From: Leucoraja ocellata
Lineage: Eukaryota
Assembly: GCA_036785375.1 (NCBI GenBank)
Contig: JAWMAR010000030.1
Span: forward strand, 7,688,001-7,752,000
Direction: 5' to 3'
DNA length: 64,000 bases
Positions 4,294 to 30,274 of this stretch are shown piece after piece (within the stretch, counting starts at the first letter, position 1; each line of letters opens with the position of its first letter). Made by a program: the position numbers and the translations under genes. The notes beneath the pieces were generated by a model that made no database searches, had not been told where the DNA came from, and saw nothing but the letters and a program-made list of their open reading frames with translations.

Positions 4294-4894
4294 AGGAAGC
4301 ATCCCTCAGGGGAGTATCAGTTGCTCAAAGTGTCCAGACCCCCAGAGGTTGAAGGAATCATGCGAAATTCCAGAAAAGATGGCATTCACAATGAGGAGGT
4401 ATTTGCAATGCACAGTCATCTGCACATTGAAGGAGTGGAAACCATTCCTGTCCTGACCTCAGGAAGTAGCTCTGGCACATAAAGGGGAACCCAAATAGGC
4501 CCAAGGCTGTCTAAACATCTTGGAAGCCAGCATTGCTGATAGATCCCAGTGGCAAGGTGCCCCTTCGTCCTTGCTGATATCAAAATGTATGCTCTCATCT
4601 ATCCATGAAATACAAAGCCTTGGTGACCTCTCCTGAGCTGCACTGAGCAGCATTTTGGGAAATGCAACAGAGGTTTGCTGCGGCTACTGGGAAAGATCCA
4701 GTGGCAAGGAAGTTCTGTGTCATCATGACCTTGACCTCCAGGAGAGAACAGTCCTTGCACTGGATTGTTTACATTGATCTTACTACAGAAATCCATGTAT
4801 ATCTATGATGATACATTTGGAAAACCTAAACCTCCAATTACCACAATCACCAACTAAACTTCAAACTACAAATTATTTTGGTTGCACTAGGGAT

Positions 4895-17828: not shown

Positions 17829-20058
17829 TCTGGCTCATGTAAACAAGGTTAGGTACAAAGCCTATCTATCCCCCATGTGTGTTGGTGTTCCCGGTTTCCT
17901 AGTTATAGATGCCAGGAAGTCCCAAGCAAGGTGCTAAACTTTGTTCATATAATAAAACTCAACCAATATTTGCTACCCAACCAAAACATAAATAGTTAAA
18001 AATCTACCTTGAAAGACAATGCAAAATGGCCTGTTAGCTTTTTTTAGCATCCCTTGAAATGAGTGCCCACCATTTGAGCAATGGGGAAACCAGTGCAACA
18101 TAAATCTACCCACACAGATGACTGATTATCTCTTCGAAGCATCCAAGTCCCGGAAGATTTTTAATACGTTCACAGAACAGTGATGTTACTGGCACGGCAA
18201 ACATTATCCCTCGTCAAACCCTACAATGTAAATCTCTCTTCCAGTAAATACATTTCAGATTACAGTTTTGCCTTTGACTAATGGGGAATATTTTTCTTCA
18301 TCAGGTAGTTCATTTTATTGGTCATGTTCTATAAAATAATGCATGATAGCATACGTTAACAGCGGGGGCAGCATGAACAAAGCCTTTGTTTGTTTCTATC
18401 CTTTTGAGGTGGGGGTCCAGTCACTGAGAAATGAGTGCAGTTATGGACTTACTTAAACAAGAAAAACAAAGCAGAGTAAATGCTCCTAATTACAGGAAGC
18501 GTGCTGTGAGCACTTCCTTGTGCCGAGAAAGTGACCCAAAACAAGAAAGACTTAGGGACCTTTCAAAGTCATCTTTCTAAATAAAAGTGCAATTAGCACA
18601 AAGTCTTTCGGTCTATTGCAAGAATGGCTGGAACAATGTTTGTCCACACACTGGGGTTTAATAGTGGCAGCCTAACCTTGGATGCTTAGTTGATTCCCCT
18701 TGGAATTTCCCCATTTAAAGAGCTGGAGAAATAACAATCGCTAATAACAGTTAACAGTCTTTCAGCCCACACACAGTTGAAACTGATGTCCGTTTTAAGT
18801 AAGAAGAGAGTTAAAGTGGGTTTGCTTATTGTTGCGAAATAGCAACACTGTGATAAATGTATTTTGTCAACTCAGGTATTCCTAGCCCCTTTAATTATGT
18901 TTTAAAAATATTAAAATACAGACCAGAAGCATGACAATTAGGTAAGCCAAAGCATTTCCACATCAGTGAGTCAAAGCTTTAAAGAGGCTGTTCGTTGTTA
19001 GGAACTACCCACATTGTGACTACTTTGAACTATATAGACTTTTCTGAGATATGTGCTCAGAATAATAATTAAAATCAAATTATTTTACACATATGTTTAT
19101 AGATAAATCCTTTATATCATTTTCTGTGTCTTTTCATTTTAGAATTAATCCTAAACTTAGAAAAGTTTGCATGGCAGCATTAAGGAAAGTCAGGGATATC
19201 AACATCAATGCTGTAAACGTCAAGCTAGTAAATGCTCCCAATGAATGAGTCTGCAATGTTGGTTTAGGTACTGATGGGTTTACTGTATATGGTTTTGTAT
19301 GGGGAAAGATGTTCACCAAACAGCCCATTTAACTAACCATTGCTTCAAAAGCCAAGCGTTTCAATGCAACAGAGGTAGCACATTTTAAAATAAATTGCAT
19401 CAGAACTCCAAACAGCACAGCAATAAACCTCATGAATGCAACAAAAGCCTCATCCAACAAAGAACTTAACGTAAGGTCTCCGTTACATTCATCTTAAAAT
19501 GTAAAGTATATGCACTGTAATTCACAGCACTGGCTGAAATGCTCCATGCTCCATGCAAAATGGAGCCAAAGCAATGTGCAAAATGCTCTCAAGAAATGTG
19601 CAGTTAAGTATGGTACTGTCAAATAAATGGTTTAAGGCTGCATTATCCTGAAGCTGAAACAGAATTAAATGACCTGTGCAATGTCACTTTAACTAAAGGC
19701 TTTTATCTCCATAAACCAGATGTTGTTCTGACCTTTTTCTGAAATGTTTACGCAGTGGCTCCCTTGAGAGAAAAAGACACTTCCAAAAATGGTGCCTTGT
19801 TCTTGCTGCAGAGGTTACACACAGGCACAAATGTGCACTAGTTAAAAGATAAAGTAGTTCAAATCAATTTGATTTCAGTCGGAAAGGTGGAGGGTGGACG
19901 AGGAAGGTAAGGGGAAGGATACTGCAGCTTTAAATTATTTTTCTTTGACACTTCATTTACAAACAGTTGAAATGATGGTTCATTGTGCCTTCAGTGCAAG
20001 ATAAGCATCAGGTCTATGTCACCACACGGCTAAAATGAGATGCAATAAGTAAACTTAC

Positions 20059-20094
20059 CCTTCTCCCTGGTAGGCCCATGGATCCTTTGTTTCC
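20059..20094 (-). CDS. col13a1: Collagen XIII exon, 36 bp: GNKGSMGLPGRR
   Basis: Acceptor gattattag, donor gtaagt; resembles recalled COL13A1 GDKGAIGMPGRV. Confidence 0.88.
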
Positions 20095-20751
20095 CTAATA
20101 ATCAATGTACAGTCAGAACTGCAAAGAAAGAGTTTTTTTTTGCAATTTCACCCAAAAAGCTGCTCAGCCGCACACGAGAACATCCAGCAAAGACGTGTGC
20201 CCCGAAATCACAGAGCAAGCGTTTCAGAATGTAATGCTTGATCACAAAAGCATGAAGGTTTCCCATTAGATGCCACTATTGAGAGCTTCACACACCAAAC
20301 TACCAGACTGCTAGGCCAGGAGTTAAACCTTAGGAAAAGAGCCCTTAATCACAAGTTAAAGTGCTATCACCACACCATCAGTTAAAAAAGTCACCATCCA
20401 TAGACATCCATAGCTATCTAGCGATAGCCAAGATAATATGTTTTGGGGAGCAGTGTTTGCAAAACAGTTAAGTAGCTTAATGTAGATGATGTGGATTTTT
20501 AATTTCTGTGATATCAACCATTTCTGAAATGAAATTATTTATCCCAAATGAATTTTTTTTTTCTGTTGCATTAAGGAGAAAATAGAGTACATGATTTAAT
20601 TATTAGGATTCAGTGGGAGTGGATAGAAGTTAGCAAAAGGCAAGCTTCAGTGTGTAGCAGGAGATAGACACAGACTGTTAAAACAAAGCAGATAAGTGCA
20701 AACACAGAGTTAGGATTAGACAGGAGAGGGGTGCAGTTTAAGGCTATTTAC

Positions 20752-20778
20752 CGGAAAACCTGATCTTCCTGGAGATCC
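20752..20778 (-). CDS. col13a1: Collagen XIII exon, 27 bp: GSPGRSGFP
   Basis: Acceptor ttttgtccttttcag, donor gtaaat; resembles recalled COL13A1 GPTGRPGLP. Confidence 0.88.
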
Positions 20779-21127
20779 CTGAAAAGGACAAAAATCAGTA
20801 GAAAAGGGAGAGAAATGAACATATTATTTACACAGCACAACAAGCCAGAGAGACAAAGCTGACTTGATTCATTTTAACTTTTATAAGGTATGAAATTTAA
20901 AAGTGCATTGGTTCAAAAGCTAGAGATCTATTCAATGGTTTGAAAGAATAACAACCAATGTAAATCCTGCAAGGACTCAGGAAACAGTTATGACAACACT
21001 GCAAAGATTTAGCAGAAATAGGTTAATATCTAAGGTCTAGTTCACCATAGAGAAGATAAGAGACAGACACTTATTTCTTTTTACCCAACCTGTTCTCTTG
21101 GGCACTACTAGCGTTTTGTGTACTTAC

Positions 21128-21135
21128 AGCAGACC
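21128..21135 (-). CDS. col13a1: 8-bp microexon GGTCTGCT (completes G-S-A)
   Basis: Long pyrimidine tract ctttttcccttttcttgtgttcacag, donor gtaagt; bridges the phase-1 end of the 45-bp exon to the phase-0 start of the 27-bp exon. Confidence 0.85.
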
Positions 21136-22620
21136 CTGTGAACACAAGAAAAGGGAAAAAGCAGATTATTTTTCAGTGGCGTTCACTACAGAATTAATAT
21201 AAGTTTCATCAGTGATTTAATTCTCTGGACTAGTGACAAACTACAGAAACTGCATTACATTTCAGATGCATATTTGTGCAAAGGAAAGAGTTCTCTATGT
21301 AGAAATAAAATTAGATGATATCGTTTGTGTCAGTTTCTTAATACACAGCCAGAAATTAAAATCACATTTTCGGTTTGTTTTAAAGTTTTTGCCTCTATCT
21401 CCCACCAATTAGGAAAACTGAGCCAAACGACACCTGTCACAATTCAACTGAACACAATGTTATTTCCTTGAAATCAATGTGTACACTGCCCATTCATTGC
21501 TGACCACAGTAAAGTGAGTCAAAAATTGTGAATTACGACCTGGCTAACTAACTGACAGTTCAACAAGTATATCAATCTTAAAGTAGTGAACTCTATGCAA
21601 CTTAGAGTGCCCCCAATAATATTATCTTTATGCGTTAAAATGTATCCTGCAATTTCTATTTATATAAACTGTTATTGCCACAGTCCTCAGTAACGATTGT
21701 GGTTCCTGGGAATTGGAAACTGCTGCCATTAAACAACTGGGCTCCTTGCCCAGGGATGCTGGGATCTTCCCCAGATATCCATGTGCCATTACCCTCCTTG
21801 CAATTCCAGCATCTCATTCCTTTTCTTGCAGGTATCTATCCCTGTTCTTCCACTCTCTGTGTTACCTCCCTGCATCAGCACCGACCCACATCTGGGCAAA
21901 TGGGATAGAAGGGTAGAAGGGCAGAACAGTCGGCTTGGATGTGATGGGCCGAAGGGCCCATATCTGTGGTGTACAACTCCACAGGCTCATTTCCAAGGGA
22001 CACGGCAAAAGTGCCACTGTTGCTGTCTGACCATCAAGTGGCAGTGTCTATGAAACACACACTTGGGTTATAATGTGGGGCACAAGGACTGTAAAAACAT
22101 GCTCCTTCTTGGAGGTAAAGCACAATGAAAATGCCTTGAAAGCAATGATGACCCAAATTGCAACATCAAATATGAGAGAGATGATATTAAGAGGGACAGA
22201 GACAAGGAATTGGATGTTTTGGATGAAATTGGTCCCAATCTAGGGGATTGACTCGCATCCTTCTCACAAGGTTCTGTGAAAGCTCCGTTGGATACCCATT
22301 TCCACTGTTGGAACTTGACACATCCACCCTTCTCACCAGGTAAGCTGTGTCATTAACTCAAAAAATGCCCAATATGAGGATGGTTTTCGGTTGTAGAGGT
22401 CCAAGTATATGGCTCAAAACCAATTTTTTTCAGGATCTTATATAATAAAAGCAAAGCAACTATGCAAACAATCTCGGCACTATAGTAAAAAAAAAATCCC
22501 AATGACCTCTGAACCTGCAACTGCTATAAAATATGTGTGTTTTGTGGAAAACATACTTGTAGGGGGATCATTGACAACAATATAATTTGGACTACTAGCA
22601 CCAATTTTCTTTAAATCTCT

Positions 22621-22882
22621 AGGAAGGAACTGCAGATGCTGGTTTAAACCAAAGATAGACACAAAAAGTTGGAGGAACTCAGCGGGACAGGCAGCATCTC
22701 TGGAGAGAAGGAATGGGTGTTGTGTATTGGGTCGAGACACTTCTACAAGGGTCTCTAACTTTTGAACCAATGCACTTTTAAAAAATTGCAAGAAGGGTCT
22801 CAACTCGAAACATCACCCATTCCTTCTCTCCAGAGATGTTGCCTGTCCCGCTGAGTTACTCCGGCTTTTTGTTTCTATCTTC
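22621..22882. mobile_element. Penelope-derived fold-back element with foreign spacer
   Basis: Inverted arms; 13-bp TSD tctttaaatctct at 22608-22620 and 22883-22895. Confidence 0.8.
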
Positions 22883-23905
22883 TCTTTAAATCTCTTATAG
22901 TCACAGATCTTCCTATAAATGACATGCTACATCTGTTTTGATTAAAAAATAAATAATTTTATAACTCACAACTGTCTCTGCCATCACTAAATCATTATTA
23001 CGTTACTTTGTAAGATAAAAATGTCTTGAGATGTCCTTTCCTGAAATTTATGCTTCCCAATTTTAGTGCAGTGTTCGCGATTAGAATTAGAAGAAATGTA
23101 CAGAGAGGCAGCTGTCTGTCGCTGAATGTACAGCAGAGAAATGATCATTCCAGTGCAAGTGGATTTTTTTTAAAGTAAAAGTCATCATTTTAATAAATGG
23201 AGTTGAGAAACATTCCCACAGTGAGTATTCTTGTGTGGTGTCCATTATCCAAAGTGAACCTTGCAGTCCCGGGACTTGGCTGCTTTTGGAAGGGAGTTGA
23301 TTTCAACATCATAATGCCCAGAATTTCACTGAACTGGGCCAGATTGTGAACAGGTTGGAAACATGGCTTCACAAGCTTTGCTCTCAAGCCCTATTTTCCC
23401 CAAGTGAAATACGCTTGTAAAGAACATAAAGGGAGGAAGACAAGCATGAACAAAATGGATGACAGTGCCAATATTTTGTGAAGGAATGAATAGTGATATT
23501 TATTCTTTGAGATTTAAAAAAATTATTCTTGTGTTATTCATTATTGCATGAAATATAATCTTACAAAGTTATACTACAATGTATTGAAGCATTTTAATGC
23601 ATTTGCCATCATTTACTAATTATATTTAAAAAAAGCACAGAAAAGGCTGGACCACTGCTGAACTCACCGCTAAAAGGTCACAGAGTTTACTTATTAATAT
23701 ATATCCGAAGAAAGGCTAACTTCGGGAATAGAATATTGGTGCATCACCAAGCCAAAAGACAAAGCTTGTGCCTTTACAGTGAAATACAGATTTACAATCT
23801 TATTATAGATGGACCATAGAAAGAGACTTGTGGAGGATGTTTGCTAGAATCTGATGTTTGATCATGTTAGCACAGTTGGGCACCACGAGGAGTGACTTGT
23901 GACTA

Positions 23906-23995
23906 TAGACACAAAGTCCTGGAGTAACTCAGTGGGTCAGGCAGCAACTGGAGAAAAAGGATGGGTGACGTTTCAGGTCAGACCCCTTCTTCAGA
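23906..23995 (-). mobile_element. Penelope-derived terminal repeat with hammerhead-like core
   Basis: Reverse complement reads ctgaagaaggggtctgacctgaaacgtc. Confidence 0.7.
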
Positions 23996-24805
23996 TAAAC
24001 TAGTTTGCTCAAGGAGATGATAGTTTAAAAAAACTCAGAAGTCTATGGTTTCAGATTTCTAGAATGGCAGATCAGGCTGACCAGATTGTGCAGAGTTTGC
24101 ACAATTTTACAGCAAATGAATTAGACTTTGGTATTTTTAAGGCATGCAACAGGTAACAGATCTATGGAAGCAATCTCATATTAACCTCCAAATTAAAGGA
24201 AATAACGACTGGAATAAATGATACACAAATGAACATACTTGATTTACAAATAAAAAAATTATTTTTACAAATCTTTCTTTACAAATGTTAATTTTATATA
24301 CAAAAAATATATTTTCTGAAGTACTGTATGCACATTAGAAAGTTTAGACCACAATTAATAATGCTCCAATATTCATCCACTCTCATTACCTTCTTGATTT
24401 AAAGCATGATTACATGTTAAATATCCCTTTATTACTCTATAATACATGTTCCTTCGTGGGTCATGTGTGTGAATAACATATCACAAACCAGCACCTTTTA
24501 GGGTGTAGCTGCAGATACACAGGAATAGGAATTCTTCCTTGGTTCCTCAAACTAAATGGGCAGTACAACATTGCTACATGTTGTATCCGCCATTACACTG
24601 TTCTGTTAATTTCATTGGAAGCAATGTTTAGGAGAAGACTGTGCATTGTCCAGTACCAGGCTAGCAACACAAGAGTATGGTTTACTTGTGAGGACTGGTA
24701 ACAAATTAAATGTTAATAATCAAGGAGCCAATTCCATTCCTCTATAACACAGGGAATTATATTGTTCATTGTGGGGGAACATCTCGGAACAACTGTGGCA
24801 CGTAC

Positions 24806-24850
24806 CTGGAGTACCTCTGCGACCATGTCTTCCTTTTTCTCCTGGTGGCC
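24806..24850 (-). CDS. col13a1: MACIT collagen exon, 45 bp, phase 1/1: (G)PPGEKGRHGRRGTP(G)
   Basis: Acceptor gtttctctctag, donor gtacgt; perfect Gly-X-Y; visible in ORF 24720..24923. Confidence 0.85.
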
Positions 24851-26150
24851 CTAGAGAGAAACCAGGAATATTAGTATAGTTGTCAACAAATGGGGAGCTT
24901 GTATCTGAGTAGACCAGTGGCACAACCGACTTAAGATGACTGTAAAATTGGAAAGCGGAGTCAAAATGTAAACGCTTGAGTTTTGATTAGGAATCTAGCA
25001 GCTTTTAAGCTATTCTTGTTCATCATTTGGCATGGAGAGTTACACTTTAATAATGATGTTTCTGAGAAGCTTAAATGTAAATATACAAGTTCTATAGCTT
25101 GTATTAACAAGAGTTCTGGCTGTCTTTCACATTTCTACATTCAATTAATTATTGTTCTTGATAACCTTCTGCTTCCCTGGATTATTGATGAATTGGCCCA
25201 ATATCAAGATGCTGACCTAATCTCAGATGGATAATATTTCACAATTTATGCTGTAATAAATCATTGAAGCAGGACCAAGGAGTCAACATTCCTTAACGTT
25301 CTTCAATCATGAAAACGCACATCCATCTATGTTGCGTGTAAAATGTTATATCCCCAAGCACGAAAAACAGTAACAAGGGGAATATCCACAGCATTTCACA
25401 CAAAAGCTACATTTAAAACATGAAACAGAGCACTCTAAACATTTGAATGTATATAGTATAAACTTAAGTACACAGACTGTCCTCCAAAATAAACTGAACC
25501 CACACTAGAAATTGTTACAAAAACCCTCGACTACAACGCATACTATTTCAGATCAGAATCTCTAATCATGGATTGCATAATCGTGCATAAAACTTCAGCA
25601 TGACTAATTTTAAGGTGCTAAATAGATCCCTGTCTTGCAAAATAGAATGTTTATTTGCTCTACACATATCTATTATTCCTGTAAAGTAAATCACCCGATC
25701 AAAGATGAAGTGGAGTTGTTAATGAAAGCTTCCTTTAAGCTAAATGTGAGCAATATTAATGAGGTCATTTTTTGTGATGTCCCAAGTATATATTACATGT
25801 TCAATGGACCGCATCTTGGCTACATAATGAACAGTTCAGTCACAGTTTGCAGGGTGTGTAACAGTTCACTCAGTCCGGACATAGGGTTGGAATGTAACAA
25901 TTGATATATTGATTTATCCTATTTCTAATGAAGGTGATTTCAGACGACTAAAGGGGAAGCTGGAAGTATTTTCACAACGCTCCTAGATATTCCATCATCA
26001 TTAAATGAATCTGTCAAACTGAAAATATCGTGATTGAGGGAAATAAAAACGAAACCAACTTCACCATTAAGGACCAAAACTGGTACGAGCCTCTCAACAC
26101 AAGGATTGTAGTTGCTGGTTTACAAAGAAAGGCACTGAGTGCTGGAGTAA

Positions 26151-26430
26151 AGCCCTTGTCCCACTTTCCTAAGTTACTCAAGAATTCTCCCAAGTTTTCC
26201 CCTTGATTCAAACTCGGAGATGCCAGCCGTGGGTACTCGGGGCTATTTTTTGACTCGTGGACATTTTTCAACATGCTGAAAAAAGTCCAGACTTACCTGA
26301 TGCCCCGAGTACATACGGCTGGCATTATGAGCCGCTACGAAATATCTACGGACTCGCTACGGACATTCTCCGAGTTTGAATCAAGGGGAAAACTCGGGAG
26401 AATTCGTGAGTAACTCGGGAAAGTGGGACT
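26151..26430. mobile_element. PIF/Harbinger-like MITE inserted into a Penelope-derived repeat
   Basis: TIRs gtcccactttcc...gttactc / gagtaactcgggaaagtgggac; TAA TSD splitting the host motif gctggag-TAA-ctcag. Confidence 0.8.
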
Positions 26431-28444
26431 TAACTCAGAACATCAGGCAGCATCTCTGCTGATCATGGATAGGTGGCAGATTGGGACTGTTCTGAATAGT
26501 ACATGAATGGTTTGTCCACTAGGTATAAATATCTGCAATACTAAATAGCAAATTAATAACAGGCAGGATTATCTCACACGTTTCACATCCTGATGCTTCC
26601 CACAGAATATTTTCACACTGGAGCAGATTAATATTCTACTCGACAATTGGGAAATGTTGCACTTTGGTTTCAGGATAGTTAAGGATTCACTGACTGGTTA
26701 TTTTGGCCAGTTCCCTCTGGGCACGTGATCCTCCCCATTAGATTCTACTCATCTGAAGCTTAATGCACAGAAGGCCACTGTGAAAATGCAGCTCAGTGTG
26801 GTGAAAACAATGCAAAATTCGTCTAGTGCAAAAAAAAAAAATTAAATGCTGGAGGAACTCAGCGGGCCAGGCAACATCTGTAGAGGGAAATGGACAAACA
26901 ATGTTTCGGGTCGGGACTCTTCTCCTTTGCAAAAAAAAAGATTACCGTATACTTTCACCAACAGCTAAATTCTACATTAGTGTAGGGGGACGGGGTGGAG
27001 GAAACTAAACACATACCATTAGATCGGCTATCCTGCCTAACTTCTTTTCTTTTCACTGGCTTCCATTTTTACACCTAGTCCCCCCTTAATGGGGGTTTGG
27101 GGGAGGAGGAGAGGGGAGGAGGATTTAAATTACCCAACATATTTGACCAGGAACAAAAATCACAGTCAGAAACTTAATTTACAGTAGAAACACAAAGAAC
27201 AGATAGAAATGGATGCCCACACATAGAGAATCCCAAACATTGACAACATGCTAAACTTTCTCAGCCTGGCCCCGACCACAAGTATTCAAAACCTTACACA
27301 TGAAACAATCAACTCATCCAGAAACATATGATCCCAAACACATGTCCAAACCATGATACATAACCCAACCAAGCCCACTACACATAAAACAGCAAAGGCC
27401 GCCAGTCGATAATATTAGATGTCTATATCCAAAATATCAGTGGCTCATATGTTCTCCAGTCCTTCCTCTGCGCACTGATTACTTTAGTCTTTCATTCTCC
27501 ACCACCAAACCATGTGAGTTTCAGATATAACTCTTTAAATGTTTCGCGACTGGAGTACTAAGGAAAATCTGAATTTGATGAAAGTTTGGATGAAGTGCAT
27601 TAACTCGGTTTCTTCCTCCACAAATTCTGCCTGACTTGCCGAGTGTCTCCAACATTTTCCATTGTTTCAGGTTTCTGGCATCTGAAGTTTGTTTTTTGCT
27701 TCAGGTAAGACTACATTTTGATTGAGAGAACAAAACAAGCCTGATCTCTGGCTTAAATCTACCAATGAGATACAGCATATTCAAGTCCTACAAGCACTGT
27801 TTAAAGAACTGGTCTCAATCATTTTTGTGTCCAACCATTCCACACAACTGGAATAATTCGTAACTAAACGCAGTCCAGATGAAATAGGTATGTGGGCCAG
27901 AGACTGGAGAAGTGCCTGACGAAGGTCCACTTTACAAAACGTTACTTGTCTATTTCTTCCTCAGATGCTGCCTGGCCCACTGAGTTCCTCCAGCACTTTG
28001 TGTTCTGCTCAAGAATGCAGATCAGTTGGTTCATGGTCATGTGTTAAACACCTTAGCTACATAAATCACCGCTTTCTAACATCACTGCTGAAGAATTAGT
28101 AGCCTCGTTCAATAAGGCAAGGTGGTCAAACACTTTGGTGGATTATAATTGCTCGGATAAATACAAAGACCTGTTGTTGCAATCAGAAGAAGTCATGGAA
28201 AATTCCAGAATACCCAGGATGTAAAATTGCAAGAAAAATACAGCTAAAACAAATAGCAGATGTGTAAATTTGTTCTGTTTTTAAAATATAAGACAAAGAC
28301 TTCCTTAACAAAACAGCAAGTACATTCCCAATAAAGAGATCAACGGCCTTTAACATATTGCAATGTAAACAGCATACATCTGATGCCATTAATATTCATA
28401 CTAATAGATTGGTTAATGCTGAATAGTGAAATACAATAGAGTGC

Positions 28445-29690
28445 AGCAAAAATCAAAATGCTGAAGGAATGCAATGGTTCAGGCAGTATCTCCGGAGGGA
28501 ACGTAGTTCAGACGGAAGCAGGGTCCCGACCCAAAATGTCTTCTGCCCATTCCCTCCAAAGATGCTGCCTGATCAATTGAGTTCCTCCAGCACTTTGTTT
28601 TTTAGTAATGTTGAATCGTGTTTACCGTGAAATAGCAATGTTCGCAATAAATGTGAAGCTTGCAGCAGGATTTCAGAAATAAAGGACATAATATGTTTAA
28701 CAATACGAGGATAGTTACAGCAGACCAAAAACAAACTGCTGGTGAGACTCAGCAGGTCAAGCAATACCTGGAAGGTGAAAGAAATTTGGGTCGAGACCCT
28801 GAATCAGGTGAGGGAAGGTAACTGAGGGTGGGGGGGAGGGGGGGTGGTGGTGAGAAGGGGGTAGAAGGTCATAGGTGTTCCGAGGAGAGATAGATGAGAG
28901 GGGTAGGAGTGGAAACAGAAGAGATGGAAGCAGACGAGGAAAACTGCAGATGGGGCCAGGAGGAAGGGTGGGTGAAGGAGAGATAGAATCCGAGGGGAAG
29001 ACAGCTGGAATCTGAAGAGTTAAAGCCCTGTCCCACTGTATGTTCATTCAAGAGCTCTCCCGAGTTTAATTTTTTTTTAAACTCGTGGTAAGCAAGTAGA
29101 ATGTACGTAGCAGGTACGTCGGAGCTCGGGGACGTCTCTTAGCGGCTCGTAATGCTAACAGCAGGTACTCAGGAAACATGGTAAGCTCGGGAAGACTCGT
29201 GAAGATTTTTCAACATGGTGAAAAATGTCCACGAGAGCCCTGAGTACCTATAAGCGGCCATTACCGTATATCTCTGAGTTCGAATCAGGGCAAACTCAGG
29301 AGAACTCTTGAATGAACTCGTACAGTGGGACACGGCTTCAAGGAAGATGATAAAGGGAACCAGTTAAGGTAGAATTGGGGCAGATGGGGATATGGAACCG
29401 GATGGGAGAGGGGATCGGTGAGTGACGTGTAGGTGGCAGGTAGATGGAGCAGGAGTGAAAATGGATACCGTGGGGCTGGGTATGGCGTATGAACAAGAGA
29501 ACAAAAATAGGAGGACAGAGGGGGAGAGTTATGGGAAGACAGGGGGTAATGGTTGCCCGAAATTGGAAAAGTCAACGTTCATACTGTTTGGTTGTAGAAA
29601 TCCCACCTTGGCAGTGGAGAAAGCTGAGGATGGGAGGTTGAAGTGGGAATGTGAAGGCAGGTTGAAATGACATGCAACCTATATTTTCGG
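28445..29690 (-). mobile_element. Degraded Penelope-like element 3' region (endonuclease C-terminus, pyrimidine-rich UTR, terminal repeats)
   Basis: Minus strand near 29560-29600 encodes LQPNSMNVDFSNF, the typical PLE ORF end; followed by a CT-rich UTR and terminal repeat copies at 28445-28600 and 28735-28805. Confidence 0.7.
29024..29337. mobile_element. PIF/Harbinger-like MITE nested in Penelope remnant
   Basis: TIRs agccctgtcccactgta / tacagtgggacacggct, flanks TAA/TCA; interior related to the 26151 MITE. Confidence 0.8.
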
Positions 29691-30274
29691 ATGGCTAAAG
29701 GTCAAGGCATTTTACACATTTTCACAACGTACATATTTTCCAAAATCAGCAAATGCATTTAGTGGCATTGATGGTACTCAATCATCAGATTGCAGGTTTT
29801 GCAATAATTCCTGGTTAGCACCTGAACAAACAGGAAATAGAAGTCTTAAACTTTAATTCACCATTGCAATTTAACCGGTGAAAATTAAATCTGCAATATA
29901 AAGATGTAGAGATGTCCGACTTGATCGTGGGGTCTGTCTTTTCCTTGAGATGCCTGATGCATGAAATGACCTGAAGGCACCAATGCTGAATGTCTTTTCA
30001 AAGCGATTGAAGCCAGCAATATATAAACATGTTATGGAAGCATATGAAAGATATGAGAAAAATCACCACATTCAACTACCAACAGAAATCTTCGACTGAG
30101 GAGAAGATTTCAATTTGATAGGATTTCAACACATTAGAAAAGCTGTATATTTTTTTTACAAGAACTGTTTCCCAGCGAAGGCAACACATGTTAGGAAACT
30201 GAGGAGAAGCCCAGAGCAGATCTGTAATATTATGAAGGGTTCCTTTATGGTAAATGTGCAAAGAGCTTAAGAAA

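Follow-up and report, generated by a model that had tools for sequence, protein, structure and literature searches.

Introduction

The doublets that Thomas et al. described in 2004 are reportedly 25-100 bp long, lie ~1 kb apart and are said to be mostly on the same strand. Many of them were equated by Pace et al. with repair-mediated duplications, a class of inserts that interrupt transposable elements (TEs) and carry microhomology, filler and small deletions, in zebrafish too (PMC2671141). In that account, 824 of 1,136 donors lay within 5 kb, with a peak at ~1,200 bp that its authors considered may be partly an artefact of the method, and the duplications diverged at the neutral rate (PMC2671141). 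Templated insertions of less than 250 bp are found inside L1 copies, where integration uses templates typically no more than 15 bp from the site (10.1101/2024.08.27.596794). Penelope-like insertions are laid out as inverted pLTR arms with a one-sided tail and a target-site duplication (TSD) (PMC3846280, PMC8557442, PMC11167929).

Here we describe a 33-nt inverted pair in a window of 64,000 nt (the whole stretch of DNA that was analysed), which is a fresh instance of an already described repair scar inside an already described kind of element. With the doublets of Thomas et al. 2004 it shares the short, near-exact match of two segments in proximity, but the present pair is inverted. As in the class of Pace et al. 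2009, a short piece of a single-copy donor less than 5 kb away has been duplicated, not in tandem, into a TE, with no polyA tail, no TSD of its own and possibly a small loss or filler at its junctions (PMC2671141). The pair departs from that class in length, as a copy of 33-40 nt is below the 50-bp operational cut-off, though within the range of the linked doublets, and in its acceptor, the junction of two inverted arms, which the same-orientation filter of that study would miss; the species list given there includes no cartilaginous fish (PMC2671141). Like the L1 insertions, it places a copy of a short genomic template inside an inserted retrotransposon, but the template is 1.8 kb away here and not within 15 bp (10.1101/2024.08.27.596794). 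Its host has head-to-head arms, a one-sided tail and a TSD (13 bp here) in common with endonuclease-bearing Penelope-like insertions (PMC3846280, PMC8557442, PMC11167929), from which it differs in that two ends only remain, with host DNA in the centre.

Results

The 33-nt inverted pair

The sequence at 22750-22782 is the reverse complement of 20896-20928, with 31/33 identical positions and a core of 30/31 (BLAST, E 5e-10 within the window), at the coordinates and identity reported in an earlier note on this DNA. Copy and donor are 1.82 kb apart and thus non-tandem (>50 bp).

20896..20928, + strand: donor, low-copy, within the intron of 349 nt that separates the 8-nt exon from the 27-nt exon
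22750..22782, - strand: acceptor, central in the fold-back, matching the donor in inverted orientation (31/33)

Coordinates here and below are those of the window unless another contig or block is named. The donor is AT-rich, has the next 3' splice site ~117-150 nt downstream and is covered by single contigs in relatives B, C and D. Judging from a second version of the locus (see below), the acceptor copy may extend ~7 nt further, to 22789, via a slipped A-run. At the copy junctions there was no polyA tail and no separate TSD, and the microhomology was 1-2 nt, blurred by later changes. The insert at 22750-22782 could not be aligned to the consensus of its host element.

The donor had been called apparently unique in the earlier note, which proposed a genome-wide search with the 33-mer. 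A 29-mer allowed up to 2 mismatches gave four matches in the 3.44-Gb assembly and none for the reversed control. The four are the donor and copy described here and the donor and copy in one second, ~98% identical version of the locus (C30:5.61 Mb), and the sequence is not a common repeat. A 101-nt donor region had two genome matches only, one in each version. When compared with the consensus of the element arms, the 33-mer was absent from it, which disposes of the idea that it belongs to the Penelope-like consensus.

The fold-back Penelope-like element

The copy sits between two inverted arms flanked by a TSD.

22608..22620, + strand: TSD, left copy, 13 bp
22621..22749, - strand: left arm, Penelope-like element end with 3' tail (profile match 22617-22750, model positions 11-142)
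22790..22882, + strand: right arm, same element end, tail-less, head-to-head with the left arm
22883..22895, + strand: TSD, right copy, 13 bp

The 13-bp target duplication and the tail on one arm only show that the structure is one insertion event. As the target duplication encloses the copy, while the donor is plain intron, copying ran from donor to spacer. The arms differ at 12 positions in 93 nt, and both stop a few nt short of the common element end.

An arm profile was run on a sample of 1.664 Mb, which comprised the window with 400 kb of flanking DNA and, from other contigs, six blocks of 200 kb each. It returned 865 arms, which formed 205 head-to-head pairs as against 51 tail-to-tail pairs. 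Exactly one arm carried a tail in 154 of the 205 head-to-head pairs, and a flanking repeat of at least 8 bp was present in 64 of them, compared with 6.4 in shuffled pairings. A candidate parent element (L050:8585-9778, minus strand) has a 398-aa stop-free frame, followed on that strand, after 117 nt, by the same arm. A GIY-YIG match at the C-terminus of this frame was weak (E=0.0029; 18.3 bits, under the Pfam cut-off of 22.6), and the Pfam profile for reverse transcriptase (RT) had no match in it; by eye, the frame holds what we take to be RT-like motifs. The arm consensus presumably includes a hammerhead core-like motif, which is decayed in both arms at this locus. A search of 20000-30000 with Rfam gave no hammerhead at E<=10 and nothing over the gathering score.

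Contigs of relatives B, C and D enter the left arm and leave the right arm, and among the contigs listed, in a search dominated by element copies, none crosses the centre. Since they carry both arms, the insertion is older than the split of B, C and D. No spacer-bearing contig of the relatives aligned on the donor. Another fold-back in the window, at 26158-26429, has 63-nt arms and an inner 24-nt inverted repeat and is unrelated to the arm profile; sequence resembling it lies around L076:6300-6610.

A second version of the locus

The second version (C30:5599001-5629000) corresponds to 8519-38578 of the window, inverted and ~98% identical over 30 kb. It is 2.1 Mb away on the same contig, and the five exons tested in it were all intact.

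22570..22747, no strand assigned: absent from the second version, a deletion that takes 51 nt of flank together with the left arm and stops 2 nt short of the copy

With the left arm the hairpin was lost and the copy spared. The copy retained there has one extra mismatch, which is not compensated, and the predicted stem between donor and copy is -42.9 kcal/mol. A later gain of the left arm by the window version was rejected, as the relatives carry the flank that is missing from the second version. Two other loci tested (C10 and C906) also have a second version, and the assembly may therefore hold uncollapsed haplotypes. A contig of run X2, from another sample with the same species label, ends at 22569.

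Captures at other fold-back centres

Most of the fold-back centres were either shorter than 8 nt (124/205) or element sequence. Among the 81 spacers of at least 8 nt, 45 held at least 15 low-copy bases, and low-copy matches of at least 36 bits were found at four local sites, all within 2 kb, and at no distant site. One of the four, q184, was dropped because it was element-internal, and another spacer candidate, q159, because it was too weak (26.5 bits). Captures stand at 3 of the 205 fold-backs, namely the present one and two others, with donors 1.8, 1.1 (C10) and 1.4 kb (C40) away.

L094:8505-8715: C10 fold-back, 9-bp target duplication; donor at L094:7411-7447
L163:9804 to L164:124: C40 fold-back, older; donor at L164:1462-1608

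At C10, a 38-nt inverted copy from 1.15 kb away replaces 3 nt inside the right arm, off the junction. At C40, a 147-nt direct copy (87-88%) from 1.4 kb away is placed at the arm junction and begins at a 4-nt microhomology. Both captures were confined genome-wide to their own pair plus a duplicate locus.

Local duplications in the sampled genome

An element-blind scan of the 1.664 Mb, with low copy number judged within the sample, gave 687 local duplicate segments. Forty-seven were low-copy and merged into 42 events, 33 of them within 5 kb. The 33 events amount to ~1 per 50 kb, or ~20 per Mb of the sample, with a median spacing of 1037 nt and a median length of 49 nt, and 13 were inverted (39%). 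Per kb of spacing there were 12-22 events at 0.1-2 kb and 0.2-0.5 beyond 5 kb. In this the sample resembles the repair-mediated duplications of Pace et al., with their peak at ~1.2 kb (PMC2671141). All five of the 33 pairs that were searched for genome-wide were confined to the pair and its duplicate-locus copies; the other 28 are low-copy within the sample only. The window holds a second inverted local duplication (1336-1369 / 4453-4486, 33/34) far from any arm, and its genome matches are likewise the pair and the duplicate locus.

Twenty-nine of the 33 events lay away from element ends, and four touched an element 5' end. Leaving out the present case, contact with a 5' end was seen in 3/32 as against 1.1 expected, which is not significant (P=0.09). 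One pair beside a single arm (C5), whose donor is inside another inverted repeat, was kept in the count. For comparison, Table 3 of Pace et al. 2009 lists 0.08-0.65 duplications per Mb of TE DNA, from a stricter and non-comparable method (PMC2671141). The density found here is apparently far above such published vertebrate figures, with methods that differ.

The earlier note had proposed that nearby DNA was captured during the insertion or in the repair of a broken hairpin. Capture at a break is supported by these results, but the event belongs to a known class that is spread genome-wide and lies mostly away from these elements.

The host collagen gene and its 8-nt microexon

The host gene, on the minus strand, is predicted to have 20 Gly-X-Y exons and the microexon over 98 kb; the scan behind this list looked for Gly-X-Y repeats and misses exons of non-collagenous type.

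24806..24850, - strand: upstream collagen exon, 45 nt, phase 1-1, predicted
21128..21135, - strand: microexon, 8 nt, phase 1 to phase 0, CAG/GTAAGT ends, predicted from splice signals and translation
20752..20778, - strand: downstream collagen exon, 27 nt, phase 0, predicted
20059..20094, - strand: next collagen exon, 36 nt, phase 0, predicted

About 85 kb upstream lies an exon that ends in phase 1 and encodes an R-x-x-R site and, after it, a C-x-C motif; the C-terminus is cysteine-bearing. By these sequence features the predicted product is a MACIT-type collagen. Short Gly-X-Y exons, the R-x-x-R site with C-x-C and a cysteine C-terminus of conserved type are common to it and to the MACIT collagens XIII, XXIII and XXV (PMC4678570).

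The predicted microexon is needed to keep the Gly-X-Y frame, and its position between the two copies is as the earlier note had given it. We take the gene to be a likely orthologue of collagen XIII. Mammalian Col13a1 has an 8-bp exon, for which our literature search returned no documentation. In relatives B, C and D the microexon is covered, with one listed substitution: at 21133, C and D differ by a Ser to Pro codon with the frame intact. Bulk RNA of relative B, searched in ~5% of one run, gave 0 reads on 20000-21800.

Predicted pairing of donor and copy

On the pre-mRNA strand the predicted duplex between donor and copy is -46.5 kcal/mol and flanks the microexon only; its single core mismatch is a G-U pair, in agreement with the one wobble noted before. 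The predicted cost of opening is 7.3 kcal/mol for the donor and 4.5 kcal/mol for the copy in its hairpin loop, low enough that the stem is not barred on energy. Among exons with a flanking intron of less than ~1.1 kb it is the strongest predicted bracket. The hairpin that has the copy as its loop in the window version (predicted -145 kcal/mol) is transcribed first, and a fold model limited to nested pairs excludes the stem. A 30-bp helix of about three turns would also be topologically hard to form inside a closed loop.

The donor has at least 1 change in 33 nt in the relatives, against an expectation of ~1.0 from the 57 substitutions listed over 1801 nt, of which 40 were shown. No sign of conservation was seen when the donor was compared in the relatives and the copy between the two versions, a comparison of low power at 33 nt.

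Discussion

It is highly probable that the 33 bases at the centre of the Penelope-like element were copied from intron close by, most likely through double-strand-break repair and probably with no role in splicing. A break at the element centre would have exposed a 3' end, and a few bases of this end may have paired with resected, single-stranded DNA at a distance of 1.8 kb. The annealed end would then have been extended by ~33-40 nt, released and joined to the other end, in an SDSA-like or Pol-theta-like manner. An inverted copy from the left flank would be expected if a top-strand end folded back on its own strand.

Two origins of the break can be considered: the gap left between the two cDNAs as the element integrated, and a cut made later at the tip of the hairpin. 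A break after insertion, at the hairpin-prone centre, is weakly favoured over the integration gap, and by little. On the side of the later break are the lower donor-copy divergence (1/31-2/33 as against 12/93 between the arms; Fisher P 0.18-0.35, not significant), the capture at C10 that interrupts an arm, the distance of the template when set against L1, and the asymmetric deletion near the copy in the second version. Asymmetric deletions are the usual route by which palindromes are stabilised (PMC8701086), and the DNA fold of the element hairpin is predicted at -90 kcal/mol. Integration, in turn, would fit the placement of this copy and that of C40 exactly at the junction, as well as the mild excess near element ends. 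No site that has the element and lacks the spacer was seen.

Another route to the same structure would be a jump of the element's own reverse transcriptase, which after completing one arm would have moved to a nearby template, copied 33 nt and joined the other cDNA. The template could have been nascent collagen pre-mRNA, if the right-arm cDNA was extended, or resected DNA, if it was the left-arm cDNA. The copy is exactly between two 5' ends that each stop slightly short of the common end, and a second junction capture, the 147 nt at C40, has its donor 1.4 kb away. Templated insertions in L1 copies (10.1101/2024.08.27.596794) and the capture of host DNA by Penelope elements (PMC3846280) are on record. 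Such a jump implies that fold-back junctions are specific hotspots of capture, and two of the three captures are exactly at an arm junction, with the excess at element ends pointing the same way (P=0.09). Yet that excess is not significant, only 3/205 fold-backs show a capture, and the donor spacings of 1.1, 1.4 and 1.8 kb match the element-independent background. The typical L1 template is within 15 bp (10.1101/2024.08.27.596794), and the copy looks younger than the arms, again short of significance. We therefore regard the jump as unlikely, well behind repair of a break. That the two sites are similar by chance or share a dispersed repeat has next to no probability. The sequence is AT-rich, and a DNA-mode genome search scores the best candidates only, which would leave some room for such an origin; against it stand the E-value of 5e-10 in the window and the pattern search, in which the 29-mer with 2 mismatches occurred at the four expected places and the control at none. 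At that sensitivity, chance or a dispersed repeat is refuted.

If the pair arose by repair of a break, its flanking of the microexon is a matter of chance. The earlier note had suggested that a TE accident may have made a splicing switch, in which the copies would pair in the pre-mRNA and loop out the 8-nt exon. On such a reading, degradation of the frameshifted transcript would tune collagen output. The duplex energy and the bracketing of the microexon alone are in keeping with this. Skipping of 8 nt would, as claimed, shift the frame; provided that the predicted exons follow one another directly, 27 new residues would precede a stop. A donor change at 20911 in organism C would turn a G-C pair into a tolerated G-U, should the copy be the same in that organism. 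Exon skipping can be caused by long intronic duplexes, on which our literature search found nothing. Bracketing of this kind is easily had, however. A random pair with the same distribution of spacings in the exon-bearing 101 kb brackets some exon in 21% of cases, and this exon in 1.3%. For 5 of the 18 other internal predicted exons the brackets are stronger, at -96 to -213 kcal/mol, and for three more they are -41 to -45. The donor varies at the background rate, the second version adds an uncompensated mismatch in the copy, and the hairpin made first in the window version holds the copy in its loop, where the nested fold excludes the stem. Splice signals at the microexon are strong, and three relatives retain it. 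A functional stem of this kind is, on these predictions, very improbable. It is just as doubtful that a repair accident made a splicing control for which the deletion in the second version, by freeing the copy, would be a natural on-switch, such that the two versions would differ in skipping and decay. The splicing switch is unsupported beyond the modelled geometry, and is unlikely.

As a single locus, the repair scar carries little weight and adds one further case to those described. With local duplications at ~20 per Mb and a spacing of ~1 kb, the genome is good material for the study of a fixed donor distance, and the acceptor side is marked by the 205 head-to-head elements of the 1.66 Mb, which suit a test of capture at retrotransposon junctions or hairpin tips. 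If it were true that the stem alters inclusion of the microexon, a single mutation would have given rise to a compact regulatory RNA structure, for which the natural deletion variant would be a control.
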